The notes under the pieces are model-generated. The model searched no databases. It was not told the origin of the DNA and worked only from the letters and a program-made list of their open reading frames with translations. A program made the translations under genes and the position numbers. DNA of 64,000 nt from an uncultured Bacilli bacterium (lineage in GTDB: Bacteria > Bacillota_I > Bacilli_A > RF39 > UBA660), in the NCBI GenBank assembly GCA_947628965.1, contig CANRBV010000001.1, positions 41,225 to 105,224 of the forward strand. Direction: 5' to 3'. Below are positions 2,055 through 33,494 of the stretch, in pieces; the first letter of the stretch is position 1; every line of letters begins with the position of its first letter.

Positions 2055-3488
2055 TTAATTTACATCATAAAAATTTTCCCAAGGATCTTTTCTTTTTAAT
2101 CTTTTTAAAGCCATCTCCATAGTAATTTCATCAGGATTTATTTTATCAAGTTCACTCCAACGAATGGGCATGGATACTCTAAGTTTTTTTCGTAATCGAA
2201 GTGAATATGGGGCTACACTCGTTGCACCTTTAGTATTTCTTATCCAATCAATAAAAATTTTTTCTTTTCGGTTTTCTTTTCTTATGTTGCTTGTATATTT
2301 TTCTGGCCATTTTGCTTCCATAAAATCAGCAATATTTTTGGCAAATTCTCGAAAATTTTTCCATGTTTTTAACTTTTTAGTTGGAATTACGACATGATAT
2401 CCTTTTCCTCCACTCGTTTTCAAAAAAGAAGTTAAATTTAATTCATCTAAAACACTTTTTAAATCTTTTACTCCTTCTCTTACTTTTTCTAAAGAAAGAT
2501 TTTCATCGGGATCTAAATCAAACACAAGACAATCTGGGGTATTTAAAGCATTTATTCGACTGCCCCAAACATGAAATTCAAAACTATTCATTTGTACTTC
2601 TGAAATAAGTCCAACAATATCTTTAAAATAATAATAATCTTCACGATTGCCTTTTTCGTTAGCTATACGTATCTTGCCAATTCCTCTATTTGAATTTTCC
2701 AAATGCTTTTTAAAAAATATTTCACCCTTTATTCCTTCTGGTGCTCGAATTACAGAAACAATTCTTTTTTCAATATAAGAAATCATTCTTTGCGAAACTT
2801 TTTTATAATAATTTACAATATCCATTTTTGTTACATTCGAATATATTTTTTTTGTAGGATTTGTTATAGTAATCCCCTCAACTATTCCATATTTTTTGGA
2901 ATTTTTCTTAAATTTTATTCCGTTTTCAATTTCTTTCATGGTTCTACCAGTTTTAATACTTGTATCATATTCTCCTATATTTTTATACATATATTCATTG
3001 TCCTTTTCTTTTATTAGTAGCCAATTGTCTTCTTTAAAATGCACAAGCATCCAACGCCCTTTTAAACGTTTTCCATGCAATACAAATTTTATGGAACCAT
3101 TTGTAAAATCATTTGTAAAATTTTCTAAAGGCTCCCAGTAGCCTTCATCCCAAATCATAACGGTTCCTCCTCCATATTCTTTTTTGGGAATTACTCCTTC
3201 AAAATGACGATAACTTAAAGGATGATCTTCTACATGAATTGCAAGGCGTTTTTCATTTGTATTATAAGATGGTCCCTTAGGAACAGCAAAGCTTATCAAA
3301 GTACCCTTCCATTCTAAACGTAAATCATAATGATCTTTACGAGCAAGGTGATGTTGTACGACAAAAACTAATTTTTTATGAGTTTTTGTTATTTTACCTA
3401 ATGGTTCATTTGTTTTTTTAAAATTCCTTTTTTCTTTATATTTTTTTAATTTATCCATAATAAAAAACCTCTTTAATAGTATTTTCAA
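2055..3488 (-). CDS. ligD: LigD-like NHEJ protein: 3'-phosphoesterase domain + polymerase/primase domain, no ligase domain
   Basis: N-terminal segment (VVQHHLARKDHYDLRLEW...) matches the LigD phosphoesterase domain; C-terminal about 300 aa match the LigD Pol (archaeo-eukaryotic primase-like) domain. Confidence 0.7.
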   Translation of the reverse strand: MKILLKRFFIMDKLKKYKEKRNFKKTNEPLGKITKTHKKLVFVVQHHLARKDHYDLRLEWKGTLISFAVPKGPSYNTNEKRLAIHVEDHPLSYRHFEGVIPKKEYGGGTVMIWDEGYWEPLENFTNDFTNGSIKFVLHGKRLKGRWMLVHFKEDNWLLIKEKDNEYMYKNIGEYDTSIKTGRTMKEIENGIKFKKNSKKYGIVEGITITNPTKKIYSNVTKMDIVNYYKKVSQRMISYIEKRIVSVIRAPEGIKGEIFFKKHLENSNRGIGKIRIANEKGNREDYYYFKDIVGLISEVQMNSFEFHVWGSRINALNTPDCLVFDLDPDENLSLEKVREGVKDLKSVLDELNLTSFLKTSGGKGYHVVIPTKKLKTWKNFREFAKNIADFMEAKWPEKYTSNIRKENRKEKIFIDWIRNTKGATSVAPYSLRLRKKLRVSMPIRWSELDKINPDEITMEMALKRLKRKDPWENFYDVN

Positions 3489-3509
3489 AGTCTATTTACT
3501 TTATAACCA

Positions 3510-4925
3510 CTAAAAAGGTTTTTTTAATTTATATATGCAATCTCTATCCACAATGACGGCGGGATATTTTTTAAAAAATGGTGGTATTTTTTCTAAAGTA
3601 GGGGTATCTGCATCTTCATAACGATCCAGCATTAAACAATTATCTCCCGTATTTCCTCCTAATAAATTATCGGTTGTATAATAACCTAAACGAGCTAGTT
3701 CTTCTTGTAAAAACGTTTCAATTTGTTTTTGGATTTCTAAAGAATATTCTCTTACAGAGTGGGTTAAATACTTTTGAACTTCAATACCTGCTAGAATTAT
3801 GCCATTTTCATCGCGAACAAAACATTCTTCCAAATTTTTTATAATAATATATAAATTTGGACAAAGGGGATCTTTTTCATAAGACCATTTTGTTCTACAT
3901 AATTTAAAGGCATAATCTCCTATTTGGTAACAAGTGCTACAGGATCCACTGCCAATGTATTTTGTATCACTTTTTTTACTTAAAGACAAGTATTTCGAAA
4001 CAAATTTTTGTAACGTTTTACCAAGACCGTAGGCAAACTCTCTTTCAAGAATGGAATGATTTTCTTTTGATGTAGCAAAGTAACGTAAAAATTGATAAAA
4101 TTGTTCTTTTAATTCTTGACTCAATTTTTCAGTATAATGTTCATAAATATAAAGTTGATATTTCGAAGAGGTTTTAAAATAGGTATCTATATCCCTTAAA
4201 AATTCTGGTTGAGAAGATTTACTTTTTAACAAACACTCTCCTAAATCATTTTCTTTATAATTTTCTAAAATAAATTTTTTTAATTTTAAAAATGTTTTGA
4301 AATCCTTTTTTTCATAAAAATGGTAAGCAAGCAAGGAAACCTCTTCTTGTGGCATTAAAAGATTACTTTGCATTTTTTGTTTTTGCGCACTGGTTAGATA
4401 TTTTAAAATGTCTTCATAAAAGAAAGAAACTTTTGCAAAATGGTTTTCCACAAGATAATTCATAAATTGCCCTCTTATTTTTAAATCTTCATGAACAGAT
4501 AATTGTTTTAAATAGTCTTGATTTTCTATAAAAGATGCAAAAAGAAAATCGAATAAAAGAATGGGTGCTGAATTAAAATATTTTATTATTTTTGGAAGGT
4601 TGTTGATAAGATATTCTTTACCCCAAGTAGTATGATAAAGCATATTTTTTATTTTTTCAGCATCAAAAAAGTTTGGGTTTTTGGCTTTTTTTAAAGTATC
4701 TAAAAATTCTTCTTGGTATTCTTCCATGTCATAAATAATTTGTAAGCAAAAAGAAGGATAAGATTTTTTTAATTTGGGTAAAAAACCTGAAACAATTTGT
4801 TTTCTTGTCGTAGTATTTTCTATATTACGAATGACTTGTGCAAGCAAATTAAGTTCTGTATCGGATAAATGATAAATAAAAGATACATTGCCTTTTTCTA
4901 ATTCTATAAGTGGATTTAATGACAT
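3510..4925 (-). CDS. Hypothetical protein (471 aa)
   Basis: Long ORF directly downstream of the LigD-like gene with 21-nt spacing; no recognised motif. Confidence 0.6.
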   Translation of the reverse strand: MSLNPLIELEKGNVSFIYHLSDTELNLLAQVIRNIENTTTRKQIVSGFLPKLKKSYPSFCLQIIYDMEEYQEEFLDTLKKAKNPNFFDAEKIKNMLYHTTWGKEYLINNLPKIIKYFNSAPILLFDFLFASFIENQDYLKQLSVHEDLKIRGQFMNYLVENHFAKVSFFYEDILKYLTSAQKQKMQSNLLMPQEEVSLLAYHFYEKKDFKTFLKLKKFILENYKENDLGECLLKSKSSQPEFLRDIDTYFKTSSKYQLYIYEHYTEKLSQELKEQFYQFLRYFATSKENHSILEREFAYGLGKTLQKFVSKYLSLSKKSDTKYIGSGSCSTCYQIGDYAFKLCRTKWSYEKDPLCPNLYIIIKNLEECFVRDENGIILAGIEVQKYLTHSVREYSLEIQKQIETFLQEELARLGYYTTDNLLGGNTGDNCLMLDRYEDADTPTLEKIPPFFKKYPAVIVDRDCIYKLKKPF

Positions 4926-5077: not shown

Positions 5078-6292
5078 ATGGAGTTAATTGAAAAATTAAA
5101 AATTCTAGCGGATAGCGCAAAATATGATGCCTCCTGTTCTTCTAGCGGAAGCCGAAACGAAAGTAAAAATGGCATAGGAGCAACGGCCTTTAGTGGAATC
5201 TGTCACTCTTTTGCAAGTGATGGAAGATGTATTTCTCTACTCAAAATTTTAATGACCAATAGTTGTATTTTTGATTGTAAATACTGTTTAAATCGTAGAA
5301 GCAATTCGATTAAGAGGGCCTTGTTTACTCCCGAGGAAATTTGTGAAATTACTTTAAATTTTTATCGACGCAATTATATAGAAGGTTTATTTTTAAGTTC
5401 AGGTATTCTAAAAAGTCCTGATTATACGATGGAACTTTTAATTAAAACGATTACTCTATTACGTAAAAAATATCATTTTGGTGGCTATATTCATTGCAAG
5501 GCTATACCTGGAGCAAGTGAAAAATTATTAAAGGAATTAGGTCGTTTGGTCGATCGCTTAAGTGCAAACATAGAGCTTCCTACAGAAAATGGTTTAAAGC
5601 TTTTGGCTCCTAATAAGGAAAGTAAAAAGATAGATAAAATTATGCAATATGTAAAAGAAAATCAAAGCAAACGATTTGTTCCAGCAGGACAAAGTACCCA
5701 AATGATTATTGGAGCAACGAAAGAAACAGATTTAGAAATCATGAATAAAAGTGCTGCAATGTATAAAAATTATCATTTAAAACGGGTCTTTTATTCAGCT
5801 TATATTGGAGTCAATCATGATTCTTTACTCCCTACGTTAGAAAATCCTCCCTTAAAACGGGAAAATCGTCTTTATCAAGCGGATTGGTTACTGCGCTATT
5901 ATCATTTTAAAGTAAATGATTTATTAAATGAAAATAATCCGAATTTCAACATTTTGGTTGACCCCAAGTGTGACTGGGCGCTTCGTCATTTAGATGAGTT
6001 TCCAAAAGAAATCAACGAGTGCTCCTATCAAGATTTATTAAAAATTCCTGGCATTGGCGTTACAAGTGCTAAACGTATTTTTTCTTCTCGTAAGGTATTT
6101 ACTCTTACTTTTGATGACTTAAAAAAAATGGGTGTTGTATTAAAAAGAAGCAAGTACTTTATAACTTGTAATCATAAATATTTATTAGACCCAAGTATGT
6201 ATCAAAAAAAGTTTATTGAATCCAATTTAATTTTAGAAGAAAAAACGCCTTTAAAAAAAGAGTATGAACAATTGAGGTTATTTAATGAATAA
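5078..6292 (+). CDS. Radical SAM protein, putative DNA modification/repair family
   Basis: CxxxCxxC radical-SAM cluster (CIFDCKYC); N-terminal Cys-rich block and overall layout typical of the radical-SAM DNA-repair family that pairs with DUF4130. Confidence 0.75.
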   Translation: MELIEKLKILADSAKYDASCSSSGSRNESKNGIGATAFSGICHSFASDGRCISLLKILMTNSCIFDCKYCLNRRSNSIKRALFTPEEICEITLNFYRRNYIEGLFLSSGILKSPDYTMELLIKTITLLRKKYHFGGYIHCKAIPGASEKLLKELGRLVDRLSANIELPTENGLKLLAPNKESKKIDKIMQYVKENQSKRFVPAGQSTQMIIGATKETDLEIMNKSAAMYKNYHLKRVFYSAYIGVNHDSLLPTLENPPLKRENRLYQADWLLRYYHFKVNDLLNENNPNFNILVDPKCDWALRHLDEFPKEINECSYQDLLKIPGIGVTSAKRIFSSRKVFTLTFDDLKKMGVVLKRSKYFITCNHKYLLDPSMYQKKFIESNLILEEKTPLKKEYEQLRLFNE

Positions 6293-7028
6293 CGTTTATA
6301 TTTATAATGATACATTTTTAAGTCTTTTAAATCTTATAGATTATTTAATTTTACATCATATAAAGCCTTATCAAATTAAAAATAGCCAATATCAAAGCAC
6401 TTTACTGGATAATGTTGTCCATCTTGCTATCGAAGAAAAAGATATTGCAGGTAAAATTGTTAGGGAAATGGGTTCTTATTCTTTACAACAAATGTATTAT
6501 GTTTTTCTATCGAATGTGGAAGCTAAAGAACTTATCTTATATTATTTTTACTTAAATGGGTTAAAATACTATAGGGACATTTTTAAATATCGCAATTTAA
6601 AATGCGTGGATAAAGTTTTAAAGATTGCAAAACTGGTTCAAAACGAGTGCCATAAATACAAAGGTTTTGTTCGATTTAAAGAGTTTAATAATCACGTTTT
6701 ATACGCTGAAATAGAACCTAGTAGTGATTGTTTAGAAATTCTTTCTATTCATTTTAAAAGGCGTTTAAAAAATGAGTATTGGATTATAAAAGATGTAAGA
6801 AGAAATCTATTAAGTCTGTATGATAAAAAGGAATTTCATATCGTAGATGGCACTACTTTTTCATTAGATAATATTTTGGAAAGCCGTGAAGAAGAAAAAA
6901 TAGAAAATTTATGGAAAGCTTTTTATCAAACGATTGGAATTAAGGAACGAAAGAACGATACTTGCCGTAGGAATTTTATGCCTAAAAAATATTGGAAATA
7001 TATGTTAGAGGTGAAAAGTGAATTATGA
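6285..7028 (+). CDS. DUF4130-type probable DNA metabolism protein (radical-SAM partner)
   Basis: 8-nt overlap with the upstream radical-SAM gene; size and conserved pairing. Confidence 0.6.
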   Translation: MNNVYIYNDTFLSLLNLIDYLILHHIKPYQIKNSQYQSTLLDNVVHLAIEEKDIAGKIVREMGSYSLQQMYYVFLSNVEAKELILYYFYLNGLKYYRDIFKYRNLKCVDKVLKIAKLVQNECHKYKGFVRFKEFNNHVLYAEIEPSSDCLEILSIHFKRRLKNEYWIIKDVRRNLLSLYDKKEFHIVDGTTFSLDNILESREEEKIENLWKAFYQTIGIKERKNDTCRRNFMPKKYWKYMLEVKSEL

Positions 7029-8539
7029 AAAAAGTAATAATGAAAGAAGAATTACAAGAAAAAATGCAAGAAAGTATTCATCTTTTATGTGGTATTGTAA
7101 AAGAGACTTTAGGGCCAAACGGAAAAAATGTTTTAATTGATCACTCCTTATTTTCTCCTTTTATTACAAATGATGGAGCAACAATTGCTAGAAATATTGA
7201 GTCGGAAGATGCTATTATCAATACGATATTAGAAATTGCCAAAGAGTCTTCTTTAAAAACCGATAGTAAAGTTGGGGATGGAACGACTACAACGCTAGTG
7301 TTACTAGAAAGTATTTTTGATCATGGGTTGGAACTTATAAAAAAGGGGATGCCTCCTATTCTTTTTAAAAAAAATTTAACTAAAAGTTTAGAAAAGGTTT
7401 TAAATTCTTTAGAAAAAGAAAAACATCTTCCTAAAAATAAGGAATATGAAAGCTTAAGTATTATTGCTGCCAACGAAGAGGAGCTTGGGAAATTTATAAA
7501 TCACGTTTATCAAAAAATTAAAACGAAAAATGGAATTGAAATTGTAGAAACGGACCAAAGCATCTTAAGTGTTCAATATGAAAATGGATATCAATTTCCC
7601 ATAGAACTTGGTAGTCCACTATTTTTAAAAGAGCAAGAGAAAATTTTTTTAGAAAATCCTGTATTTCTTTTTGTTGAAGAACAAAACTCTTCTTTAGAAG
7701 ATTATAGTATGTATTTAAATGCTGCTATGAAAAATAAATGGGATGTTGTTTTTATTGCTAAAAATTTTAATGATTCCTTTATCCAAGAATGTCTTTATTT
7801 AAATGATACGCAAACCATAAATTGCTTTTTGCTTAAAATTGGAGAGTATGGAATAAAAGAATCAATTATTTGGAAAGATATAAAATTTATAACGAGTCAA
7901 AAAAAGAATTGTAAGGGAATTACGTTAACAAAAGAAAAGGCCATTTTAAAATTTACAAATTCTTTAAAAACACAAGAATATTTAAAAACAATTGAGGAAG
8001 AACTAAAGAAAATAAAAGATGAATTTGATGAAGATTTTTTTAAAAAACGTATGGCCATGTTTTTAAATGGTTTGGCAACTATTGTTTTGGGTGCCCCAAC
8101 AAAAATTGAATGTCACGAGAAAAAAATGCGTCTTATCGACGCATTGTGTGCTTTAGAAAGTGCTAAAGACGGAGTTGTTACAGGTGGAGGTATTACGTTT
8201 TTAAAAATTGCAAATGAATTAGACATTAAAAATGAAACGGACCAAATTTTACAAGAAGCTTTGAAAATACCTTTTAAACAAATTCTTTTAAATTCGGGAC
8301 TTTCTTATGAAAAAATAAAAAAGACGATTGAAAAGGAAGAATATCATGCTGTTTTTAATGTTTCTAAAGATCGTTTTGAAAAAGTAAGCGACACACAAGT
8401 AATTGATTCTTATAACGTTTTAAAACAAACTTTAGAAAACGCTTGCTCCATTGCCATGATGTTACTTACAACCAGTAGTTTAGTAATCAATGAGCAAGAA
8501 AATAATTTAGGAAAAATAAACGATTATAATGAACTATAA
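7025..8539 (+). CDS. Divergent chaperonin (Cpn60/TCP-1 family), closer to group II/III than GroEL
   Basis: LGPNGKNVLID...ITNDGATIARNIE and GDGTTTTLVL ATP-binding motifs; VVTGGGITFL near the C-terminus; 504 aa; 4-nt overlap with the DUF4130 gene. Confidence 0.65.
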   Translation: MKKVIMKEELQEKMQESIHLLCGIVKETLGPNGKNVLIDHSLFSPFITNDGATIARNIESEDAIINTILEIAKESSLKTDSKVGDGTTTTLVLLESIFDHGLELIKKGMPPILFKKNLTKSLEKVLNSLEKEKHLPKNKEYESLSIIAANEEELGKFINHVYQKIKTKNGIEIVETDQSILSVQYENGYQFPIELGSPLFLKEQEKIFLENPVFLFVEEQNSSLEDYSMYLNAAMKNKWDVVFIAKNFNDSFIQECLYLNDTQTINCFLLKIGEYGIKESIIWKDIKFITSQKKNCKGITLTKEKAILKFTNSLKTQEYLKTIEEELKKIKDEFDEDFFKKRMAMFLNGLATIVLGAPTKIECHEKKMRLIDALCALESAKDGVVTGGGITFLKIANELDIKNETDQILQEALKIPFKQILLNSGLSYEKIKKTIEKEEYHAVFNVSKDRFEKVSDTQVIDSYNVLKQTLENACSIAMMLLTTSSLVINEQENNLGKINDYNEL

Positions 8540-8771
8540 ATAGACACAATTTTAATTAAAAATGTTTTATAGTTTTTTGCTTCTTTATACTTTTTTTATA
8601 TTCTTGTTTCTAAAAGATTCGTTTATTCCCAATACTTAATATTTACAATAATTCAGCTATCTTTAATTTAACAGACACTGTCTGGAATTTTGGATATTTA
8701 GCGTTTATCAAAATAATTTTTTAAAAAAACATATCTATTGGAATCATAGAGAAATATTTATCCAAAAAAAA

Positions 8772-14587: not shown

Positions 14588-14855
14588 TTATATATATATG
14601 AATTTAACTATTAAATCGCCTTAATTCCTTTAAAAATATAAAATTATAATTCTAATTCATATAAAGAATTCTTTATAATTTTATATTTTTTTTATATGAT
14701 TTTTATATTTCATTTTTTCTCTTTTTTATATAACTTTCTTAATTATTTTATATTATTTTTATATTATTCTTATAATACTTTTAATAATATAATAACTATA
14801 ACTATATAAAATAATTATATATTATATGATAGAACTTTTACGATTATTATTTTAT
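14588..14855. repeat. Very A/T-rich intergenic region with short direct repeats (ttttatattatt x2, tataat-type repeats); possible replication origin or regulatory region
   Basis: Direct repeats read in sequence between the convergent XRE and Rep genes. Confidence 0.3.
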
Positions 14856-22740: not shown

Positions 22741-23640
22741 TTAAATTTTATTTTTTTTCTTCTTTTTAATAAGAAAATATCCACCAAGCACAAGAAGCAA
22801 AGCAACAGCAAAACTAATTAAAATGTATTTTAAATTAAAAGTTTTTGTTTCTTCTTGTTCATTTTCTTCAAGGATTTCATTTTTTTCATCTGTTTTGTTT
22901 TCTACTTCATCTTCTTTACTTACATCTGTTTCGTTTGTATTTGCATCATTATTTATAGTATTGTTGTTTTCAGTAGTAGTATTAGAACTTGCATTATTAT
23001 TAGTAGTAGTAGTACTTGTATTCTTATTCGTAGTACTCGTATTTTTATTTTCTTCTTTTTCTTTATCTTGTTCTTTATTTTTATCGGTACTAGAAGACTC
23101 CTCTTTAGAAGAAGTATCTTCCTCTTGGTTTTCACTACTATTTATTTTATAAGTAAAGTTGTTTTTTTCAACTTCAGGAGTAATTTCATGAGACTTCCAA
23201 GCATTATCTAATGTTGTTAAAGACCCACATTGAATCGTATAGGAGATATCTTTTTTACTAGAAGTATCAAATAGAATATTTCCTAGTACTAAATCTTTAT
23301 CGATATTTAATAAATTGTGACTTGTTCCTACGCCACCTGTTACTACAACAATATTTAATTCTTTTGTTTTATCATCATAAGAAGTTTTTGTAGTAAAATT
23401 ACTACTTGTTAGTTTGCTATCTAAATTCATTTTTTGAAAGTTGATATTTCCATCTACTTTTAACGTAATATCAAGTCCTCCAATAAAACCATCTTCAAAA
23501 TGTAAAACGGATTTTATATTTCCATTACCCTCTTCGTGAAAAGTTAACTTTGTTGCAGCGTTTACAGAAGAAAGAGAAAGAAATAAACTGAGTACCAAAG
23601 TGGTAACAATTTTTATAAATGTTCTTTTCATTCTCTTCAC
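22741..23640 (-). CDS. Secreted membrane-anchored surface protein: N-terminal beta-rich (possibly cohesin-like) module, S/T/N/E-rich linker, C-terminal TM anchor
   Basis: Signal peptide; about 150-aa beta-strand-type segment; low-complexity linker; C-terminal hydrophobic helix + KKKKKNKI tail; 4-nt overlap with the giant upstream gene. Confidence 0.6.
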   Translation of the reverse strand: MKRMKRTFIKIVTTLVLSLFLSLSSVNAATKLTFHEEGNGNIKSVLHFEDGFIGGLDITLKVDGNINFQKMNLDSKLTSSNFTTKTSYDDKTKELNIVVVTGGVGTSHNLLNIDKDLVLGNILFDTSSKKDISYTIQCGSLTTLDNAWKSHEITPEVEKNNFTYKINSSENQEEDTSSKEESSSTDKNKEQDKEKEENKNTSTTNKNTSTTTTNNNASSNTTTENNNTINNDANTNETDVSKEDEVENKTDEKNEILEENEQEETKTFNLKYILISFAVALLLVLGGYFLIKKKKKNKI

Positions 23641-26600
23641 CTCTTATTACTAATTTCCATTTGTTTTAACTTACTATATTCTTTTAAATCCTTTAGAACA
23701 ATTGATGTACTTGTTAATCGTTGTCCTTCATGCGTAATAGCATCATTTACACGATATAGATAAGCTCGAATACTGGTGCTAGACTTTCTCATTTTTTCGT
23801 ATTCTTCTTTACTCATAACATATAGCCACGTTCCATTTGCAACATCATAAACCGTATGATCACTATTTAATTCAGCAAAGATTAATTGATATCCGCCATA
23901 GACTTTTGCCTCATCATTACTATCTGCAATTAATACTGTATTAAACGCAGGGTTACCACGATAAGAACCTTCTATAACAACAGATCCAGCTGTAATTTTA
24001 CCATCTGGGTCGTTTTCACAACCACTTTCTAAATAACAATAATCACTTGTTAATACACCAATATTTGTAATATCGACATTATCTCCTGGAGGAGCAATCA
24101 CATCAATTTCTGCACCAGATAAAACATTATTACCATCAGATTCAATCTTAATATAATTTATATCATTATAAGTCCATAATTGACTTTCACTATCAGTATT
24201 TTGTCCCATGAAGTAAATGATTTCTTCTGGTTTTTCGCTTGTTAAAGTAAACGTACCTTTTCTTGCAAGATGCCAATCATTATCATTTCCTGTAGAACTT
24301 ACATATACTTTATATTTAGTAATTGTATTTTCATCTAGTTTATCATTTTCTACTAAGGCATGATACTTAATACCACTTACAGACATTCTATTATTTAAAT
24401 TTAATAAAACATAAGCATTTCCATTATCCACTGTAATACTTGGTTTATCACTGGTTTGATTTAAAGTTTTTACTTTTTCTGTGCCTTTAAATCCTGTTTC
24501 AATTTTACCATCAATTAAGTTGTTTACTTTTAATGTAGCATAATCCATTTCTTCGTTTTCATTATCGACAATTTCATTTGCTTCTTTTACATTTGAAGTA
24601 ATACTAAAGGCATCCTTTTTAACACTACCATCATGACTTATTTTTACTTCTTCTAAAGTAACTTCATTCGTTTTATGTAAATAATAATCATAAGCAACCA
24701 CACTATATGTATAAGCTCTATTATTTTCCGCTCCAACGTTGTCAACAAATTCATTCGTACCCTTTTCAACAAAGCCAATAGAAACACCATTACGAAGAAT
24801 TTCATAACCTAAAATCTTATCGTTGTCTTTATTAACATTAAACTCTAAAGTAACACGTTTATTTTGACTATCAGCATCTCTAATAGAAGATTCTAAAATA
24901 TTGGCACCTTCATTAATTCCAACACTTTGACGCAAAGCAAAACGTCTTGCTTGATCATTTAAGTAGTAAATCGCTCTTTTTTCTTTTGCATAGTTTAATT
25001 CTTGTAATTCTTCTTTTAAAGAGCTAGATGCTTTTAATCCCCAAATTTCAAAAAAGTTCGTTAAGTCTTTCTTGACAGCCATACAAGCATAAAGAATAGT
25101 TAAATCGTCTCTAGAATAATTTTTGGTATTCTTATATGTACGAGCAATTTTATTTATTTTTGCGTAAATTGAATTTTGATCTTCAAATGTTTTTTCATTA
25201 TCATAAGCAAGATGTAATTGCCAGTACATTCCTAACTGAACAAAAACATTTTGAGCTCTTCCCGTTGTATGGGAAGTTACTTTTTCATAAATTTTATCAT
25301 AACCATTGTTTTCTAAACGGGAAGGATCACTATCATTGCTTGTTTGAGCAAGCAAAGAATAAATATTATTCGTTACTTCTGCAAAAACAGTATCTTTTAA
25401 ATTGATTTGATGTCCAACTTCATGACTAATACCCCATCCAAAATAACCTGTTTTGGTATTACTATTGCGACTGGCTTGAACAAGGCCTGCAATTGAACCA
25501 TATTCAATGCCTATATGGTAACCTCCAGCATACATAAAAGCTCCATCAAACATTTGCATATAACGAACATTAATTCTCGCTTTTGGCATTTTATCCGTTT
25601 TTTCTGTTTGGTCTGTATCACTAAATCCTTTTTGACGATAGAATAGTTCCATCATTTCATCGAAGGCTTCCATAGATTCATATAAACGATTTGTTTTTTC
25701 TTCAATGGTTTTTTTATTTGATTTTAAAGCATCTTCTACAGCTACACTGGAAACGGACAACAAACCGTATTTTGTTACAATTTCTGTAGAGCCTAAAACA
25801 CTTTTTTGTTTATCAAAGCTTTTTCCGATAGATGCATAAGCACTTTCTAAAGTACTATTGTAATTTTCTAATTCTTTAATATATTTTTTTATTGCTGCTT
25901 TTTTATCTGTCTCATTTTCCAATAAGGTTGTATCAACCATTGGAATTTTAGTTCCTCCACTTACACGCACTTTTATTGGATTAGTAGTACTAGGTGTACT
26001 TGTATAGCGAATATAAACGCTTCCACCACGTTCATCAGTAGAAGAACCAATTTGTGGAACTGTAATAATATTTAAACCCTTATGTAAACTTTCCGTTGTA
26101 TAAGCTTTATTCCATTCACTTGCTTCAGCATGGTATTGAGTAAATATCACTTGGGCATTAATTGCCCCATTACTTCCAACATAAACATTGATTGTCTCTC
26201 CAGGTCTAGCAACAATTCCTAAAGGTTGATAATCACTAATCGTCATTGCAAATTTAACATGACCATTATACGAATTGGAAATGTTTGGATTTAGAGTAAT
26301 AACATCATCAATATGTTCATCATTTAATATTTTCTCCGCATAATCCAAATCTGCAAGTACGCTATCTTTATAAGGAGAATACTCTCCATTATCTTGTTCA
26401 TTTGCTCTTTTTCTTAATTCATTAATTTGCTTTTGATCTACGCCCTCTGCTAGGACAAGACGAAGATCGTCTGTAAATAAGGCAGCAACATCGTCCACTA
26501 ATGAATCGTAATGATAAAATTTTACTTCATCAATTTTAATATCACGAACATTTCCAGCAACAGTTAATCCAAATGCTACCGCTTTAGCAGTAATTGGATT

Positions 26601-28808
26601 TTCTAATTTTAATACATAGTATTTACGTCCCTTTTCATCTTGTTTTGAAAGAAGGGTTCCTTTTACTTCTTTACGCTCTGTATTGTCATAAATCTCTTGG
26701 TTAGACTCCCAATAATGCAATTTAACATCATTGCTATTTGGTCCACCAGATTTTAAAGAAGCCGCATAATTATCTGGAACTGTTAAGACAAATTCATCCA
26801 TTTGATAGGCATTATCTAAAACAATCACTGGGGTTCCTAAGTTGTAAGCACCATTTGCTGAAATTTGCCAATCATTATGATACCAATAAGTGTCATAATG
26901 GTCATCAACAATCGCAAATTTATTATCATTCGTCATGGTTCCCGTATGATAGAATACGTTTTCAATATGATCAGTTTTCTTATTTTTTTGATCATAACCA
27001 CTATTAATTAATTTATATTTTGGTACAATTGCAGCACCTGCTTCTTTCGTAGTTGCTTTTACTAAAGTATAACTATCACTTTCTCCTAAGTCATTTACTC
27101 CAAGTACATAAGCTTCATATTCAGTATCAGCTTTTAACCCACGTACAGAATAACTATTTGTCGAAATAGATTCTACAACAGAATAAACAGCCGTTCCAAC
27201 TTCACGATAATATAATTTATAAGATTTGGTATCGTCCATTTTTTTCCAACTAAAGTCTATTCCTCCATAGGTAGGAGTTGCAACCACCATATCTACTTTT
27301 GGTGGTTTTCTTGTTGCTTGTGGAGTTCCTTCGTGAGCATCACTCCAACCACTACGCCATTCTTGATTTACAGATTGAACGTATATATAATATGTTTCAT
27401 AATTTTTTAAATCTTCAATTGTAAAGGTTGTAAAAGTAGTTTGGAAAATAACTCCACTTTCCATTTTAGGCCCTACAATCTTAATTTCATAACCTGTTAC
27501 ATTTGGTACATCGTGAAAAGTAATAGTTAGTTGTTCACTTTTTGTATCATCAACATGAATATTTTGAGGAACATAAAATCCATCTGGTTCTTTTGTTTTT
27601 GTTTTAACATTATTTAAAAATTCTACTTTTGCTATATCTGCTAAAGTATTTGAAGAAGTTTCGGTAATTATAATAGTTACTTTTTTAACAGCAACTTGTT
27701 TTCCTAAGTCTACTTTAATTGTCCCTTCACTTGCTTCGTCTGTAAATAAATGTACTTCATTTAAACCTTGTAAAGTATCATCTACTTCATATTCAAGAGT
27801 TTCATTATCCTCTGTTAAAACGAGTAATTTCATTTTTTTAGGAATATTTTCTTCTCCTATTCCAATTCTAATTTCACTCATTTCAACAGTTTCACTATTA
27901 GAATTTTTTCCTAAATCAAGTGCAAACTCAATTGGATTATCTATAGAAATAGCTTCTTCATTTGCAGATTTTAAAGTTACAATTCCTGTATCACTAAATA
28001 AATCACTTAAATTACTTTCCTCACTAATTGTTGTTCCATTTGCTACTTCTAAAGACACATTTTCATTATTCATGATAAGACTTGTATTTTCAATTTTAGC
28101 ACTTTCTTTTTTAGAATTTAAAATTGCTGTTATGTAATTTAAATCTGCAATATCAACAACTCCATCTAAATTTAGATCATTTTTCGTGTCATTATTTTTA
28201 ATAGATTCCATTAAAATCTCTTCATCTTTTTTATTTACTTGATTGTCTTGATTTACATCACCAATTTCAAACATTCCAGCTTCATTAGATAAACTTATTC
28301 TTTTAGAAAAATCATCTAAAGTAACATCTACGCTATAGGTTACAAAATGGTTCCCGCTAAGTTCTAAAGTATACTTTCCTGTATTTAGTGAATATAAATT
28401 CATACTATAGTAAACTATATTTTCACTAGTAACGTCTCCTGATAAAACAAAACCATTCGTATTTCGTTTTGTAATTAAAGAACGGATAGTTTGTGTACCT
28501 AATTTAATAGAAGTTTCTAAAATACCATCTTTAGCGTTTTTCATTTCATTTAATGAAATAGAGGCTTTGTTATTATTTTCATCAATAATGGATAAAGCAA
28601 TATTTGTTTCTTCTCTATTTCGAAAAGGAAGAGCTAAATGAAGTTCTACTTCTATATTCCCTTTTTCTTGTATATCTCCTAAAGCAATACTACGAGTTTC
28701 TTCCCTTGTTTCCATTGCCAAAACAATTAAAGGTGAAAAATTATAAAAAAGCATTGCCCATATTAATAAGATTGATACTAGTTTATTTAAAATTTTCATA
28801 CTAACCAC
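23637..28808 (-). CDS. Giant secreted multidomain protein (1723 aa) with dockerin-like Ca-binding repeats, FN3-like modules and an M60-like/enhancin-type HExxH zinc-peptidase domain
   Basis: Signal peptide; GDVNQDNQVN...DLNLDGVVDIADL dockerin repeats; GWGISHEVGHQ zinc-binding motif. Confidence 0.7.
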   Translation of the reverse strand: MVSMKILNKLVSILLIWAMLFYNFSPLIVLAMETREETRSIALGDIQEKGNIEVELHLALPFRNREETNIALSIIDENNNKASISLNEMKNAKDGILETSIKLGTQTIRSLITKRNTNGFVLSGDVTSENIVYYSMNLYSLNTGKYTLELSGNHFVTYSVDVTLDDFSKRISLSNEAGMFEIGDVNQDNQVNKKDEEILMESIKNNDTKNDLNLDGVVDIADLNYITAILNSKKESAKIENTSLIMNNENVSLEVANGTTISEESNLSDLFSDTGIVTLKSANEEAISIDNPIEFALDLGKNSNSETVEMSEIRIGIGEENIPKKMKLLVLTEDNETLEYEVDDTLQGLNEVHLFTDEASEGTIKVDLGKQVAVKKVTIIITETSSNTLADIAKVEFLNNVKTKTKEPDGFYVPQNIHVDDTKSEQLTITFHDVPNVTGYEIKIVGPKMESGVIFQTTFTTFTIEDLKNYETYYIYVQSVNQEWRSGWSDAHEGTPQATRKPPKVDMVVATPTYGGIDFSWKKMDDTKSYKLYYREVGTAVYSVVESISTNSYSVRGLKADTEYEAYVLGVNDLGESDSYTLVKATTKEAGAAIVPKYKLINSGYDQKNKKTDHIENVFYHTGTMTNDNKFAIVDDHYDTYWYHNDWQISANGAYNLGTPVIVLDNAYQMDEFVLTVPDNYAASLKSGGPNSNDVKLHYWESNQEIYDNTERKEVKGTLLSKQDEKGRKYYVLKLENPITAKAVAFGLTVAGNVRDIKIDEVKFYHYDSLVDDVAALFTDDLRLVLAEGVDQKQINELRKRANEQDNGEYSPYKDSVLADLDYAEKILNDEHIDDVITLNPNISNSYNGHVKFAMTISDYQPLGIVARPGETINVYVGSNGAINAQVIFTQYHAEASEWNKAYTTESLHKGLNIITVPQIGSSTDERGGSVYIRYTSTPSTTNPIKVRVSGGTKIPMVDTTLLENETDKKAAIKKYIKELENYNSTLESAYASIGKSFDKQKSVLGSTEIVTKYGLLSVSSVAVEDALKSNKKTIEEKTNRLYESMEAFDEMMELFYRQKGFSDTDQTEKTDKMPKARINVRYMQMFDGAFMYAGGYHIGIEYGSIAGLVQASRNSNTKTGYFGWGISHEVGHQINLKDTVFAEVTNNIYSLLAQTSNDSDPSRLENNGYDKIYEKVTSHTTGRAQNVFVQLGMYWQLHLAYDNEKTFEDQNSIYAKINKIARTYKNTKNYSRDDLTILYACMAVKKDLTNFFEIWGLKASSSLKEELQELNYAKEKRAIYYLNDQARRFALRQSVGINEGANILESSIRDADSQNKRVTLEFNVNKDNDKILGYEILRNGVSIGFVEKGTNEFVDNVGAENNRAYTYSVVAYDYYLHKTNEVTLEEVKISHDGSVKKDAFSITSNVKEANEIVDNENEEMDYATLKVNNLIDGKIETGFKGTEKVKTLNQTSDKPSITVDNGNAYVLLNLNNRMSVSGIKYHALVENDKLDENTITKYKVYVSSTGNDNDWHLARKGTFTLTSEKPEEIIYFMGQNTDSESQLWTYNDINYIKIESDGNNVLSGAEIDVIAPPGDNVDITNIGVLTSDYCYLESGCENDPDGKITAGSVVIEGSYRGNPAFNTVLIADSNDEAKVYGGYQLIFAELNSDHTVYDVANGTWLYVMSKEEYEKMRKSSTSIRAYLYRVNDAITHEGQRLTSTSIVLKDLKEYSKLKQMEISNKR

Positions 28809-28877: not shown

Positions 28878-31163
28878 TTATCGATTTTTTTCTTTATATG
28901 ATATATCTCGTTTAATGGAATATAATTTTATTAATTGTTCATAACTTATTTGTATTACTTTTCCACCTTTAGGATTTATCTTATTTCCGAAAACAATCCA
29001 AATAACATCCATAGGAATATCAGGCATACTTGCTATTCCATCAGTAAATATTATTTTATTTTCAACTCTTTTAGTAAATGCGCGAACAGCTACATTAAAG
29101 TCAGTTCCACCATTTCCTTCAAGTCCTTCAAATCCCATATTTTCAATATCTGCTTCAGTTCTTATTTCGTGAAAGCCATAAAATTTCGTATCAAAACAGC
29201 CAACTTTTATCTTTGAGTACGGTAAGATATTTAAACATTCTCTTAAAAAATTTTTTAGCAATCTTTCATTTACAGAACCGCTTGTATCCAATAAAATTTC
29301 TGTTTCTGCCTTTGGTTGTTCTTCTAAATTAGCATGTATAACGTCGTCTTCAATATAGGCATTTTTATAAGACCAATCAACATCGTATTGAATTGGTTCT
29401 TTTAATATATATCTCCAATCTATTATCGGTTTAGATTTTCCTATATCATTTATGATTCTCTGTTCGCTATTAGTAGATGTTCCAGCTTCCATTGCTTCTT
29501 GAGATACAGTTTCTATTGCTTGTTGAGATAAAACTTGCTTTAATTCTTCTAATTCTTTTCTCTTTTCTTCTAAATTTTTTTTAAAAGCGCTTTTCTCGCC
29601 CATTTTACTAATTTTGCCTATCTCTTGTTGTAATCTTTTTTCTTGTTGATTTTGTTCTTCCATTTGTTGCTCATCATCTTGAAATTCTTTTTTATCTTTT
29701 GATTCAGCTTCTTTTAGTTTTTTTACTGCATCTTTCCACATACTATGAGTATCATGACCTACATCATCATTTTGTTCTTCAGAAGGAATTGATTCTGATG
29801 AAGAAGTTCCTTGCCCTTGTGATTGATTTTCATTTTGATTTTGAGATTCATCTAAAGAACTTTGGGATTGATCTTGTGATCTTTGTTCAGATGTGCCCTG
29901 TTGATTTTGTGATGAACTTGTTTGTTCCTCACTTTTCTCTTCATTTTGTTCATTAGATTGAGATTCTTTTTTATTTTTTGATACAGCTTCTTTTAATTTT
30001 TTTACTGCATCTTTCCACATACTATGAGTATCATGACTTACATTATCATTTTGTTCTTCAGAAGGAATTGATTCTGATGAAGAAGTTCCTTGCCCTTGTG
30101 ATTGATTTTCATTTTGATTTTGAGATTCATCTAAAGAACTTTGGGATTGATCTTGTGATCTTTGTTCAGATGTGCCCTGTTGATTTTGTGATGAACTTGT
30201 TTGTTCCTCACTTTTCTCTTCATTTTGTTCATTAGATTGAGATTCTTTTTTATTTTTTGATACAGCTTCTTTTAATTTTTTTACTGCATCTTTCCACATA
30301 CTATGAGTATCATGACTTACATTATCATTTTGTTCTTCAGAAGGAATTGATTCTGATGAAGAAGTTCCTTGCCCTTGACCTTGTTGTCCTTGTTTAGAAG
30401 ATGATGAACTTTGTTGATTTTGTTGTGAATTGGATTGTTCTTGATTTTGTTCTTCATTTTGAGTTTCAGAATTTTGCCCTTGTGATTGATTTTCGTTTTG
30501 TTTTTGAGAACCTTTTGAAGAACTTTGCCCTTGACCTTGTTGCCCTTGTTTAGAAGATGATGAACTTTGTTGATTTTGTTGTGAATTGGATTGTTCTTGA
30601 TTTTGTTCTTCATTTTGAGTTTCAGAATTTTGCCCTTGTGATTGATTTTCGTTTTGTTTTTGAGAATCTTTTGAAGAATTTTGCCCTTGATCTTGTTGTC
30701 CTTGTTCAGAAGATGATGAACTTTGTTGATTTTGTTGATTACCTTGACCATTTTGTCTTTTACTTTGTTGCTTTTCTTTAAGTAATTTATCATAAAACTC
30801 TTCTGCATCGTAATTTATTGCTTCTGCAATATCTACTACACCATCAACAAGTTTCAACCCATCTCGTTTTAAAAATTGATTTATTACACCATCTGTTGCT
30901 ATATTCCAAACATAAGGATCTTTATTTTCACTTCTTCTTATATGATCAAACGCTATATGGCATACCTCATGAGCAAATATAAAAATTTGTTCATCTGTGT
31001 TAAGATTTTTTAAAAATTCTAGATTATAAAATATCGTTTGTCCATCAGTACATGCAGTTGATATTTTTTTATTCTCTCTATAGTTTACATTTGCAACTAC
31101 ACTCCCAAAGAAAGGGTATTTTACAAGCATTTTTCTTTTTACAGATTCAATATTAAAGTCCAT
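28878..31163 (-). CDS. HExxH metallopeptidase-like N-domain + long Q/S/N/E-rich repeat region + C-terminal vWA domain (COG3864/DUF2201-like, MoxR partner)
   Basis: FIFAHEVCHIAFDH (HExxH); C-terminal LLDTSGS MIDAS (DxSxS) motif; sits with a MoxR-like AAA ATPase. Confidence 0.7.
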   Translation of the reverse strand: MDFNIESVKRKMLVKYPFFGSVVANVNYRENKKISTACTDGQTIFYNLEFLKNLNTDEQIFIFAHEVCHIAFDHIRRSENKDPYVWNIATDGVINQFLKRDGLKLVDGVVDIAEAINYDAEEFYDKLLKEKQQSKRQNGQGNQQNQQSSSSSEQGQQDQGQNSSKDSQKQNENQSQGQNSETQNEEQNQEQSNSQQNQQSSSSSKQGQQGQGQSSSKGSQKQNENQSQGQNSETQNEEQNQEQSNSQQNQQSSSSSKQGQQGQGQGTSSSESIPSEEQNDNVSHDTHSMWKDAVKKLKEAVSKNKKESQSNEQNEEKSEEQTSSSQNQQGTSEQRSQDQSQSSLDESQNQNENQSQGQGTSSSESIPSEEQNDNVSHDTHSMWKDAVKKLKEAVSKNKKESQSNEQNEEKSEEQTSSSQNQQGTSEQRSQDQSQSSLDESQNQNENQSQGQGTSSSESIPSEEQNDDVGHDTHSMWKDAVKKLKEAESKDKKEFQDDEQQMEEQNQQEKRLQQEIGKISKMGEKSAFKKNLEEKRKELEELKQVLSQQAIETVSQEAMEAGTSTNSEQRIINDIGKSKPIIDWRYILKEPIQYDVDWSYKNAYIEDDVIHANLEEQPKAETEILLDTSGSVNERLLKNFLRECLNILPYSKIKVGCFDTKFYGFHEIRTEADIENMGFEGLEGNGGTDFNVAVRAFTKRVENKIIFTDGIASMPDIPMDVIWIVFGNKINPKGGKVIQISYEQLIKLYSIKRDISYKEKNR
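29690..30790. repeat. Intragenic near-identical tandem repeats: 3 x 279 nt (about 29690-30370) and about 2.7 x 156 nt (about 30370-30790)
   Basis: Read in the DNA (gatacagcttcttttaatttttttactgcatctttccacatactatgag... at 29701/29980/30259; ccttgaccttgttg[t/c]ccttgtttagaag at 30373/30529/30685). Identical antisense ORFs offset by 279 nt in the track. Confidence 0.9.
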
Positions 31164-31173
31164 AATTTATTCC

Positions 31174-31569
31174 TCAAATATGAGCAACTAATGAATAAAT
31201 TTCTTCATTAATTGTTTCTTTATTTATATTTGTAGCTGTTAAAATGATTCTTGTGTTTTCTGGTATTTTAAATGTGGACACTTGTCTATACTCTAATAAT
31301 TCTTTAAATTTTAATTGCTCTTCTTTAGAGATACTATCAATATCTTTTATAACTATTATTTTAGCTTCATTTGTATTAGTTAAATCATAATACCATTTAG
31401 GAGCTAGGAAATCTACTCCCTCATAATAACCATTCAATTCTTTTGTTTCACAATTTGCTGGTATTATTACAGATTTTGGAATACTGATATTAGATGCAAA
31501 ATCAATAAGAATAGGAGCAACATTAATTGAAAGATAACTGTTTAACATATTCATTTTATCATTATTCAT
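31174..31569 (-). CDS. Hypothetical 131-aa protein, middle gene of the ATPase/vWA operon
   Basis: 4-nt overlap with the upstream ATPase gene; 10-nt gap to the vWA gene. Confidence 0.55.
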   Translation of the reverse strand: MNNDKMNMLNSYLSINVAPILIDFASNISIPKSVIIPANCETKELNGYYEGVDFLAPKWYYDLTNTNEAKIIVIKDIDSISKEEQLKFKELLEYRQVSTFKIPENTRIILTATNINKETINEEIYSLVAHI

Positions 31570-33494
31570 TTTTTTCTACCTCCCGCAGCAAGTCTGGCTT
31601 CAGCAATTAATTCTAGTCTAGATTCATCACCATGTGACCATAACGAATCAAATATTGCCCCAAACTCCGCTCCTAGACTTATTACGAAACTTCTTACTTT
31701 TGCCATATTTTTTTCGTCAACTTGAGAAAGACCCATTGTCGTAGCATATCTGGAGGCAGTATTTAATGATTGTATGTCTAGTCCACTATAGGTTCCATTT
31801 ATTACATCATTTAACGTTATAACTGGTTGATTGCAGAACTCTAAAAATTCTCTAGTTATATCTTCTCCCACTAAAGCTCTTAACATTCCTGGGCTTCCAG
31901 TAGCGTAAAGCATTTTAGAAGCCATTTCCCATTTTCTAGGATCAGCATTTGGCTTTACACCATTATATTGACTTCTTAATACTGCACCTTTTCTATAAGC
32001 TATATAGGAATAAATTGCAGGATGAATATTATGTTCACTTGCCCATTTTAACCATCCATCCGTTGTTGTTCTGATATATACATGTGCAAATCTATTAAAT
32101 AATGGTTCGGCTAATTGATTTGCTGATAAGGAATCTTTCATCTCATTACCAGCAGCAACTATTCTTGCATTATCTGGTAGTTGCCATATTCCATTTACTT
32201 CTCTATCCAAAATAATGTTAAAAGCTATTCCTTGAATACTAGGCAAAGCATTTGTTATCTCATCAAAGAAAACGATATGTAATTTATCAGGTTCTGCCTC
32301 ACATTTAGCTTCTAATTTTTTTAACCATGTAGGTTTTATATCAATCATTTCACCTTTTTCAGAATTATAAGCACTTTTTCCATTTAAACTTTCAGGTGTT
32401 GCATTTCTTAAATATATAATGACACAATCAGGGTCAATTTGTTTTACTCTTGCGCTTTTTCCTTCACTTGAAGCACCATGTAAAAATACAGGCACTCTAC
32501 TTGCAATTGCACCTTTAATAATTTCTTCTTCACTGACTTGTCCAAAATTAAATCCATAGGGATTGTTTTTTTCACTTCTTTCTGAATATTGATAAGAAGT
32601 ATTTTTTACTTTTTCAATTTCTTTTTGGTGCTGATTAGAAGTTTTGCCAGAATTTGCTTGTATCACTTTAGTTTTACTTGATACTATATCTCTTACAAAA
32701 TAAGTATTTAAAAAATCATACATATCTGTGCTGGTCCAATCAGAATCAGAATAAAAATAACCATCTTTATTAAATCTTATTCCCGATGCAATTATATTTT
32801 TGCTTAACATAACCTTTTTAAAATTATCAACATACCATTTAAGTGGAGATACCTCTATCCAAACAATATCTCCATTTTTATATTGTTCTCCATTTGAAAG
32901 TAAAGAAACACGTGGATTTCTATTATACACTCTTACATATTTTCTTCCATTATATTCAAATTCCTCATTTTTCATTGGGTAAAATCTTGTCAGTTTATCA
33001 TCGCATTTGATGGAATCCGTTGTATATGTTTTTCCAGTTTTTTTTAATATTGTACCAGATTGATATGCTTGTTCCAAATCATATTCCATAGATGAACTAA
33101 CGACATATTGTGGATATTCTCCATACTCTATTTCTACAAACCTATGTGGTAGTATTCTCGTTATTCCATTTGAAGAGTTAGATTGGTGAACGTCTAATAT
33201 AGTTGGGCGAACTCCATTTGTCCTAGTTCCAGCAGAAAATTTACTGATAGAACCATTTATATCAACAGCAAGTGGATTTCCTTGTCCATCAGAGCTCATT
33301 AAATTGTAATTACCTGTGTGCCCTTTTAAAGAATTATCATAATTTACATAAACATCTTCAGAAACGAAACCTCCTAATAATATAGCAAAATCTGTTATTG
33401 CACACTTTGCACCCATATTTTTTTTAATCATTCCATTAAAATCATAAATTTGTTCTGCATTAAGTAATGTAATTTCACCACTACCAAAATTCAT
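31566..33494 (-). CDS. MoxR-like AAA ATPase with an uncharacterised ~320-aa N-terminal domain
   Basis: Walker A GASSEGKS; Walker B IVFFDEITNA; AAGNE sensor region; no recognisable motif in the N-terminal half. Confidence 0.65.
   Translation of the reverse strand: MNFGSGEITLLNAEQIYDFNGMIKKNMGAKCAITDFAILLGGFVSEDVYVNYDNSLKGHTGNYNLMSSDGQGNPLAVDINGSISKFSAGTRTNGVRPTILDVHQSNSSNGITRILPHRFVEIEYGEYPQYVVSSSMEYDLEQAYQSGTILKKTGKTYTTDSIKCDDKLTRFYPMKNEEFEYNGRKYVRVYNRNPRVSLLSNGEQYKNGDIVWIEVSPLKWYVDNFKKVMLSKNIIASGIRFNKDGYFYSDSDWTSTDMYDFLNTYFVRDIVSSKTKVIQANSGKTSNQHQKEIEKVKNTSYQYSERSEKNNPYGFNFGQVSEEEIIKGAIASRVPVFLHGASSEGKSARVKQIDPDCVIIYLRNATPESLNGKSAYNSEKGEMIDIKPTWLKKLEAKCEAEPDKLHIVFFDEITNALPSIQGIAFNIILDREVNGIWQLPDNARIVAAGNEMKDSLSANQLAEPLFNRFAHVYIRTTTDGWLKWASEHNIHPAIYSYIAYRKGAVLRSQYNGVKPNADPRKWEMASKMLYATGSPGMLRALVGEDITREFLEFCNQPVITLNDVINGTYSGLDIQSLNTASRYATTMGLSQVDEKNMAKVRSFVISLGAEFGAIFDSLWSHGDESRLELIAEARLAAGGRKK

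Follow-up and report, generated by a model that had tools for sequence, protein, structure and literature searches.

The stretch of DNA described here, called the window below, is 64 kb of contig CANRBV010000001.1 from an uncultured Bacilli bacterium. On its minus strand, at 28878-31163, an open reading frame (ORF) encodes a 761-aa protein consisting of an N-terminal zincin-type metallopeptidase core, a long linker and a C-terminal von Willebrand factor A (vWA)-like domain, and the gene stands in a three-gene cassette with a AAA+ ATPase gene. Two adjoining tandem arrays, with units of 279 and 156 nt, are internal to this ORF and in frame with it, and together occupy 1062 nt (~1.06 kb); we read them as a probable coding minisatellite. 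A preliminary description of the window had placed some 1.1 kb of repeats at 29690-30790 inside a vWA gene. Both the gene and the total size were right, but the end at 30790 overshoots the repeats by about 50 nt.

The gene is recognized from its ORF, its translation and two Pfam matches, both of which exceed the gathering cut-offs: PF13203 (DUF2201_N, 'putative metallopeptidase') at the N-terminus, with 119.7 bits (cut-off 23.2, E=2.3e-34), and PF09967 (DUF2201, 'VWA-like') at the C-terminus, with 39.7 bits (cut-off 26.4, E=6.1e-10). The N-terminal core (aa 1-132, 30768-31163, minus strand) is compact in the AlphaFold2 model, with a predicted local distance difference test (pLDDT) score of ~80-90. 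It carries an HExxH motif, HEVCH, at aa 65-69 (30957-30971), whose two histidines and glutamate are invariant or nearly so in alignments of 22 and 50 sequences, as is one further histidine. A sequence search against the PDB gave a marginal profile similarity (E=0.0023) to MJ1213 (PDB 4QHF; selecase, a minimal zincin); Foldseek run with the whole model of a 434-aa homologue, P0022, returned vWA matches only and none for the zincin core, and the fold class of this core is weakly assigned. The protein begins with MDFNIESVKRKMLVKYPFFGS, which is the start of the conserved zincin fold and has no hydrophobic leader, and inspection of the sequence ends by eye revealed no signal peptide, lipobox or cell-wall anchor.

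At the other end, the vWA-like domain (aa 623-739, 28947-29297, minus strand) contains an invariant metal-ion-dependent adhesion site (MIDAS) motif of the DxSxS form, DTSGS, at aa 626-630 (29274-29288). The Foldseek matches, which include BatB (3IBS), integrin I-domains and NorD with E values down to 6e-5, were obtained with the AlphaFold2 model of P0022, and concern the homologous C-terminal domain of that protein, not the window protein's own model.

Two repeat arrays in a disordered linker

Repeats were mapped with Tandem Repeats Finder (TRF), and their limits were refined by an offset analysis of our own. TRF recovered both arrays, with periods of 279 and 156 nt. The 279-nt array, whose units encode 93 aa, extends over 29679-30383 on the minus strand (raw TRF limits 29679-30377, 2.5 copies, score 1356) and comprises 2.53 copies with 98% matches: copy 1 at 30105-30383, copy 2 at 29826-30104, and a partial copy 3 of 147 nt at 29679-29825. 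The codon at the array junction is the sole difference between copies 1 and 2, and the longest exact self-match at an offset of 279 nt measures 333 nt; the partial third copy has 6 extra substitutions, mainly non-synonymous. The 156-nt array, whose units encode 52 aa, spans 30366-30740 on the same strand (raw TRF limits 30369-30737, score 703) and holds 2.4 copies with 97% matches, namely two full units at 30585-30740 and 30429-30584, which differ at 8 positions, and a partial unit at 30366-30428. The preliminary description was correct in seeing two arrays of near-identical units, and the repeat peptide that it quoted is found in the translation, but it over-counted the units (three of 279 nt and ~2.7 of 156 nt).

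Both arrays are, by a wide margin, the top-scoring tandem repeats of the window, and a 30-mer specific for the unit occurs 3 times at up to 3 mismatches, where shuffled sequences are expected to give 0 occurrences. The head-to-tail arrangement and the percentage of matches are those of a coding tandem repeat, or variable-number tandem repeat, and the two unit lengths, being multiples of 3, keep the reading frame. An ON/OFF phase-variable contingency locus, which would operate through frame-shifts or promoter spacing, was rejected, since all units are frame-preserving and the arrays lie inside the ORF.

On the plus strand, the ORF listing contains two identical 85-aa ORFs at 29699-29956 and 29978-30235, exactly 279 nt apart, as had been noticed previously. 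They were rejected as genes: they are a by-product of the repeat, and face a well-supported coding frame.

A much smaller in-frame tandem duplication (24 nt x 2.0, 29483-29530, minus strand) was detected by TRF and by alignment. It corresponds to an insertion of 8 aa, IETVSQEA (aa 550-557), absent from 21 of the 21 aligned homologues, and the repeat gene seems, in the lineage of the window, to be prone to small in-frame duplications. The vWA domain also has a 3-aa insertion (EGLEGNGG vs EGGGG).

AlphaFold2 gives residues 140-468 a pLDDT below 50, short helices of the modules described below excepted, and the short linker of P0022 is likewise modeled with low confidence. With a length of ~335 aa, the linker of the window protein is composed of 24% Q, 23% S, 12% E and 11% N; it has a net charge of -26 and 6% hydrophobic residues. 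The 52-aa array reaches 50% Q+N, with 15% charged residues, a net negative charge and not a single aromatic or hydrophobic residue. The proposal of a disordered linker rich in Q, S, N and E is thereby upheld: it is polar, poor in hydrophobic residues and without predicted structure. Its placement between the peptidase-like and vWA domains needs to be amended, however. The linker does follow the zincin core, but on its other side it meets a region formed of an HDTH motif and helices, from which it separates the core; it does not directly abut the vWA domain.

Classical Q-linkers, at some 15-25 residues, are far shorter than this. They are reportedly, after Wootton & Drummond 1989, glutamine-rich flexible interdomain tethers of bacterial multidomain proteins. 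The linker described here is, like them, a Q/S/E-rich, hydrophobic-poor and unstructured tether, the length of which varies among homologues; unlike them, it attains ~335 aa, contains recent tandem repeats, and has conserved modules, each a motif plus a helix, embedded in it. The term Q-linker is in use, for example in PMC3664792.

Composition also raises the question of a prion-like or phase-separating domain, in which the Q/N-rich array would drive self-assembly or the formation of condensates. The richest 60-aa window of the linker (aa 140-199) contains 33 Q/N (55%), and passes a simple count criterion, set at no fewer than 30 Q/N in 80 residues. Bacterial Q/N-rich prion-like domains have a precedent in the Rho protein of Clostridium botulinum (PMC4703818, PMC6400439), and the likeness extends to a Q/N-rich low-complexity insertion of labile length, in a cytoplasmic protein from a low-GC Gram-positive lineage. 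In contrast with prion-like domains, the array of the window is devoid of aromatic and hydrophobic residues and highly acidic. Moreover, the linkers of orthologues go down to ~26 aa and phage homologues have none, so that a prion-like property would be dispensable for the family. We consider this reading very unlikely.

Repeat variation and a conserved motif among relatives

The family was surveyed through 119 cluster representatives of relatives. Linkers measure between 26 and 341 aa (median 91), while the part of the protein that follows the motif is steady at 269-292 aa; the longest linker of the set is that of the window protein. The length variability that had been proposed for the linker is therefore present among relatives. 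Tandem duplications can be recognised in 16 of the 119 representatives, where their periods at the protein level take at least nine values, and DNA arrays found in other species have periods of 42 (x10.2), 123, 126, 144 and 156 nt, all multiples of 3. In-frame tandem expansion of the linker is a recurrent, lineage-specific trait of this family, acquired independently in different lineages. For the study of the protein itself, this means that a zincin-vWA protein tolerates tethers whose length goes from 26 residues to over 340, which constrains models of its cooperation with the AAA+ ATPase.

The 156-type array is common to sister species. At locus L082 the array runs to 3.7 copies (88% matches), and at L065 to at least 2.1 copies (6424-6749), where the contig ends within it; P0004 has ~2 copies, P0008 ~1, and P0014 and P0022 fewer or none. 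Copy number differs between species, with values of 0.5-3.7 across P0014, P0008, P0004, the window and P0003/L082. Units group by genome and not by position: units 1 and 2 of the window are 97% identical to each other, and 86-91% identical to their positional counterparts in L082 and L065. This clustering by species points to recent expansion or concerted evolution, as the preliminary description had it, or to repeated turnover.

A closed 1.46-Mb chromosome of a metagenome-assembled genome (MAG), L045 (CP091726.1), carries at 6001-8645 an orthologue that is split into ORFs 6156-6743, 6725-7522 and others; the breakage may reflect frameshift errors or a pseudogene. As a long-read check of an even longer gene, which the span of its match had suggested, it was discarded as unusable, the gene being broken into several ORFs.

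The 279-nt unit is composite. Its 5' part of ~141 nt is an HDTH-motif module, and its 3' part of ~138 nt is a diverged 156-type unit, with a local alignment score of 100 against 22.6 +/- 3.3 in shuffles. The 5' module encodes D-V-G-H-D-T-H-S-M-W, followed by a helix. Across the 22-sequence alignment, the motif columns D, H, D, T, H and W do not vary, and those of V, G and S hardly do; the motif has the form D-V-G-H-D-T-H-x-[ML]-W in the clade, and is looser in more distant members (D-[TS]-H-x-x-W). Three copies of HDTHSMW are present in the window protein, all encoded on the minus strand. The first (aa 284-290, 30294-30314) lies in a degenerate context, 'DNVSHDTH', with an AlphaFold2 helix at 286-302 (pLDDT ~46); the second (aa 377-383, 30015-30035) is identical to it, with a helix at 379-394 (pLDDT ~51); the third (aa 470-476, 29736-29756) has the canonical context 'DDVGHDTH' and a helix at 471-488 (pLDDT ~74). 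Most relatives have one motif only, and module comparison identifies the third copy as its orthologue. Both copies upstream of the third have 'NVSHDTH', and differ from it by D>N and G>S at invariant or nearly invariant flanking positions. The description of the 279-nt unit as a pure linker has therefore to be given up, since it carries the clade-invariant DVGHDTHSMW and a helix, in three copies per protein.

More than one motif module is also found in a second lineage, P0010/11/13/16 (L003/L004), which has two. Compared between the two lineages, upstream modules are 61% identical in their 3' halves, against 44% identity to the terminal module of the other lineage, and the 5' halves are homogenised within each protein. 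The origin of these duplications is ambiguous: they may be old and shared, with partial conversion, or may have arisen by convergence. In the N4-like phage homologue the Q-rich linker and the HDTH motif are both missing; they are innovations of this clade.

Taken together, we think it likely that the two in-frame arrays of long repeats are a coding minisatellite which enlarges the disordered, acidic, Q/S/N/E-rich linker of a DUF2201-type zincin-vWA protein, and that gain and loss of units are nearly neutral. Replication slippage, or unequal recombination between the long direct repeats, would gain or lose whole units, and the protein would stay in frame because the units are multiples of 3 nt. 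Gene conversion, or recurrent gain and loss, would keep the units of one genome alike, and with a weakly constrained linker length the changes would drift almost neutrally. As to history, the 156-nt array would be the older one, common to sister species; the 279-nt unit may have been born when the motif module was duplicated along with one 156-type unit, and would then have been re-duplicated very recently, because its two full copies are identical, the junction codon apart. The slippage and conversion steps are proposed on the strength of the pattern and of what is generally known about unstable repeats.

Size-variable proteins encoded by coding minisatellites include alpha C/Rib of group B Streptococcus and Vlp/Vsa of Mycoplasma. 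The arrays of the window resemble them by their long near-identical units (tens to hundreds of nt), unit lengths in multiples of 3, homogenisation within a genome, and a copy number that would change by slippage or recombination. Unlike these surface antigens, which are under immune selection, the window protein has no visible signal peptide or anchor and begins with a zincin core; its repeats are in an interdomain linker, and its operon includes a cytoplasmic AAA+ ATPase. Repeats of this sort are well known, and a specialist would find nothing surprising in them. Added interest comes from the triplicated conserved motif, and from a clear disagreement between assemblies.

Several points weigh against a near-neutral minisatellite. 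Near-neutrality is drawn solely from the spread of linker lengths, and a literature search on DUF2201, at the level of titles and abstracts, returned no paper on the function of the family. A second motif module persists in the P0010/11/13/16 lineage, and extra modules could be selected and not neutral. Finally, the window and its close relatives appear to be short-read metagenome assemblies, with SPAdes-style contig names and a coverage of ~11x, and the exact self-match of 333 nt is longer than a typical read.

If extra modules were indeed selected, the array could serve as an adaptive rheostat: gain and loss of repeats would alter the length of the tether and the number of HDTH motifs contacting the zincin site, the vWA MIDAS or the AAA+ partner, so that the activity of the cassette would be re-set quickly, in the manner of a contingency locus. 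Such a role would fit the clade-invariance of D-V-G-H-D-T-H-x-[ML]-W, and the fact that near-clonal assemblies differ only in this array (see below). It would also fit the retention of HDTHS[ML]W by the extra modules of both the window and the second lineage, with 3' halves closer to each other than to the terminal modules. Nevertheless, the upstream copies are degenerate at their flanks, and orthologues with a single motif tolerate linkers of ~26 to 226 aa, which indicates a weak constraint. The absence of linker and motif from N4-like phage homologues also speaks against a rheostat, as does the lack of any confident docking in the AlphaFold2 model. On balance we find selection of this kind unlikely. 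In a more specific version, DVGHDTHSMW would be a tethered intramolecular ligand, either a zincin latency 'switch' or a ligand of the MIDAS, and the arrays a fast-mutating rheostat of the threshold at which the AAA+/zincin-vWA system is activated. This version is speculative and we give it little credence; if true, tether length and ligand number would re-set the activation threshold of the cassette in small-genome gut Bacilli.

Alleles in near-clonal assemblies

The search for homologues in a public collection returned a protein, P0001, identical to the 761-aa window protein, a 668-aa homologue with 99% identity, shorter by exactly 93 aa, and a second homologue of 761 aa that differs by S336P and S429P, two positions separated by 93 residues. 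An exact-sequence look-up for the contig behind P0001 gave no record. As to the DNA, the contig with the 668-aa allele (L001) lacks exactly one 279-nt unit and otherwise equals the window over 22 kb, and the contig with the S>P allele (L083) is the same as the window over 22,286 nt, save for a T>C change at unit position 226 in both full units (window 30158 and 29879). The differences between the three near-clonal assemblies are confined to the 279-nt array.

Copy-number variation at the strain level is a plausible reading of these alleles, and the same pattern is expected from the ambiguity of short-read assembly. An exact repeat of 333 nt, combined with short reads, implies that the number of identical units and the differences between strains could be decisions of the assembler. 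The second identical 279-nt unit, its absence from L001 and the double single-nucleotide polymorphism of L083 would then all be assembler choices, and would correspond to no strain difference: a loop of the de Bruijn graph would be walked one or two times, with bubble popping that leaves both passes with the same allele. If one copy truly carried T and the other C, bubble popping would leave either T,T or C,C by chance, in agreement with the alleles observed. The 761/668-aa pattern is what concerted evolution at a hyper-unstable repeat is expected to look like, and equally what de Bruijn-graph assembly at ~11x would be expected to produce. That the three assemblies are otherwise identical over 22 kb also favours an artefact, as do the SPAdes-style names of these ~11x contigs.

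Contig ends point in the same direction. In four related species (L065, L074, L077 and L078) the MAG contig stops inside the linker of this gene, which indicates that the repeat breaks short-read assemblies. The warning that such assemblies would falter at the tract was well founded, contigs breaking or disagreeing exactly there. A scan of Joint Genome Institute (JGI) metagenomes with the unit-specific 30-mer gave no matches, and no further alleles.

Assemblers, however, tend to under-count repeats and not to over-count them. Furthermore, the 2.5-copy form was assembled at least twice (the NCBI record of the window and ERZ27249368), and the 1.5-copy form is found on two contigs. Artefact is no explanation for units that have diverged, namely the partial third copy and the 156-nt units, and the variation across species rests on diverged units, which assemble reliably. 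We conclude that an assembly artefact in the count of identical units is a real possibility, though less likely than not.

This locus is a clean case of short-read MAG assemblies from one clone whose only disagreement lies within a coding repeat. As a practical consequence, protein lengths deposited in databases for this family should be treated as lower bounds.

The three-gene cassette and its neighbourhood

The first gene of the cassette (31566-33494, minus strand) encodes a 642-aa AAA+ ATPase, matched by PHROG 1297 'ATPase' (E=1.2e-43). The ATPase module covers aa ~320-610, with a Walker A motif 'GASSEGKS' and a Walker B motif 'VFFDE'; the match to Pfam AAA_5 reaches 17.5 bits, under the cut-off of 22, and a PDB sequence search gave no match. 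It may be of the MoxR type, a phage counterpart being annotated as MoxR-like. The N-terminal 320 aa are conserved in the clade, tblastn alignments spanning residues 1-640 in most loci. For aa 1-320, no Pfam, NCBIfam or PDB family was found, and the only match was a weak one to a TIR-like (ThsB) model of PADLOC at aa 159-211.

Between the ATPase and vWA genes lies a gene for a conserved 131-aa protein (31174-31569, minus strand), identified by tblastn. By the same method, this gene immediately precedes the vWA gene in 76 of 81 related loci, and the ATPase adjoins the vWA gene in 74 of the 81; the flanking genes vary. The 131-aa protein has no Pfam family and no PDB sequence match, and a weak match to a PHROG clamp-loader only. 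By eye, its segments 'IIVIKDID' and 'IILTATN' resemble a degenerate fragment of a AAA+ protein, with Walker B and sensor-1.

Around the window gene the cassette is intact and syntenic. This bears on the idea that the gene is decaying under relaxed selection and drifting towards loss of function, its insertions being symptoms of that drift. Such a course might account for several features of the window protein: no other linker of the set is as long, 8 aa are duplicated, 3 aa are inserted in the vWA domain, and among the columns conserved at 95% or more it deviates at 11. Two other homologues deviate more, however (13 and 16), and the reading frame, the HExxH motif and the MIDAS are intact. We regard decay as hardly credible. 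Pseudogenisation was rejected, since the motifs are intact and the protein is no outlier at conserved columns.

MoxR-type AAA+ ATPases and vWA proteins form known pairs, RavA-ViaA, NorQ-NorD and CbbQ-CbbO (reviewed in PMC7159879), and here too an ATPase gene adjoins a gene for a MIDAS-bearing vWA protein. The resemblance extends to a pair of N4-like phages (gp029/gp031 of Vibrio phage SBP1), made of a MoxR-like ATPase and a DUF2201 protein with the same zincin plus vWA architecture, and the cassette is related to this gene pair. Unlike the MoxR-vWA and phage pairs, the cassette of the window has a conserved third small protein and a 320-aa N-terminal extension on its ATPase; the phage DUF2201 proteins, for their part, have a short linker and no HDTH motif. 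By analogy, the cassette could remodel or process a client at the expense of ATP, the vWA MIDAS binding this client and the zincin cleaving it.

The cassette does not match the VMAP/iSTAND/FtsH ternary systems of PMC7159879. PADLOC defence models gave no match to the three cassette proteins beyond the weak TIR-like one on the ATPase, and PADLOC and NCBIfam each gave a single weak, sub-threshold match over the three proteins; the cassette is for this reason not classed as a known defence system.

Its hosts are uncultured gut Bacilli, or 'Tenericutes'-like MAGs, from rabbit, Hadza and chicken guts, with records such as CAG:417. The window, with ~27% GC and with pheST and ABC-transporter genes, is chromosomal. 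The clade-invariant HDTH motif, triple in the window protein, provides a handle on a three-gene cassette of many uncultured gut Bacilli.

Some further observations were made on the cassette genes and their surroundings. In a rabbit-gut relative (L002), segments 1020-2031 and 2893-4830 both align to the ATPase region of the window, with ~84-86% nucleotide identity, an indication that part of the ATPase gene has been duplicated upstream of the vWA gene. In Vibrio phage SBP1 (L084, 1814-4556), a MoxR-like ATPase, an HNH endonuclease and a DUF2201 'metallopeptidase' are encoded consecutively. PHROG 1314 matches the phage DUF2201 protein (E=5.5e-60), yet is labelled 'HNH endonuclease', a name repeated in several phage records; this label was probably carried over from the neighbouring gene.

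Immediately downstream of the vWA gene, at 23637-28808 on the minus strand, lies a gene for a 1723-aa protein that combines fn3 repeats with a peptidase domain of the M60/enhancin-like type. This protein is a candidate mucin-type glycoprotease, which would fit the gut habitat; its gene is not kept beside the cassette in other species. Elsewhere in the window, minor repeats were found at 14679-14783, an AT-rich array of 9.5 copies of 11 nt, and at 22974-23035, where 2.3 copies of 27 nt lie within ORF 22741-23640.

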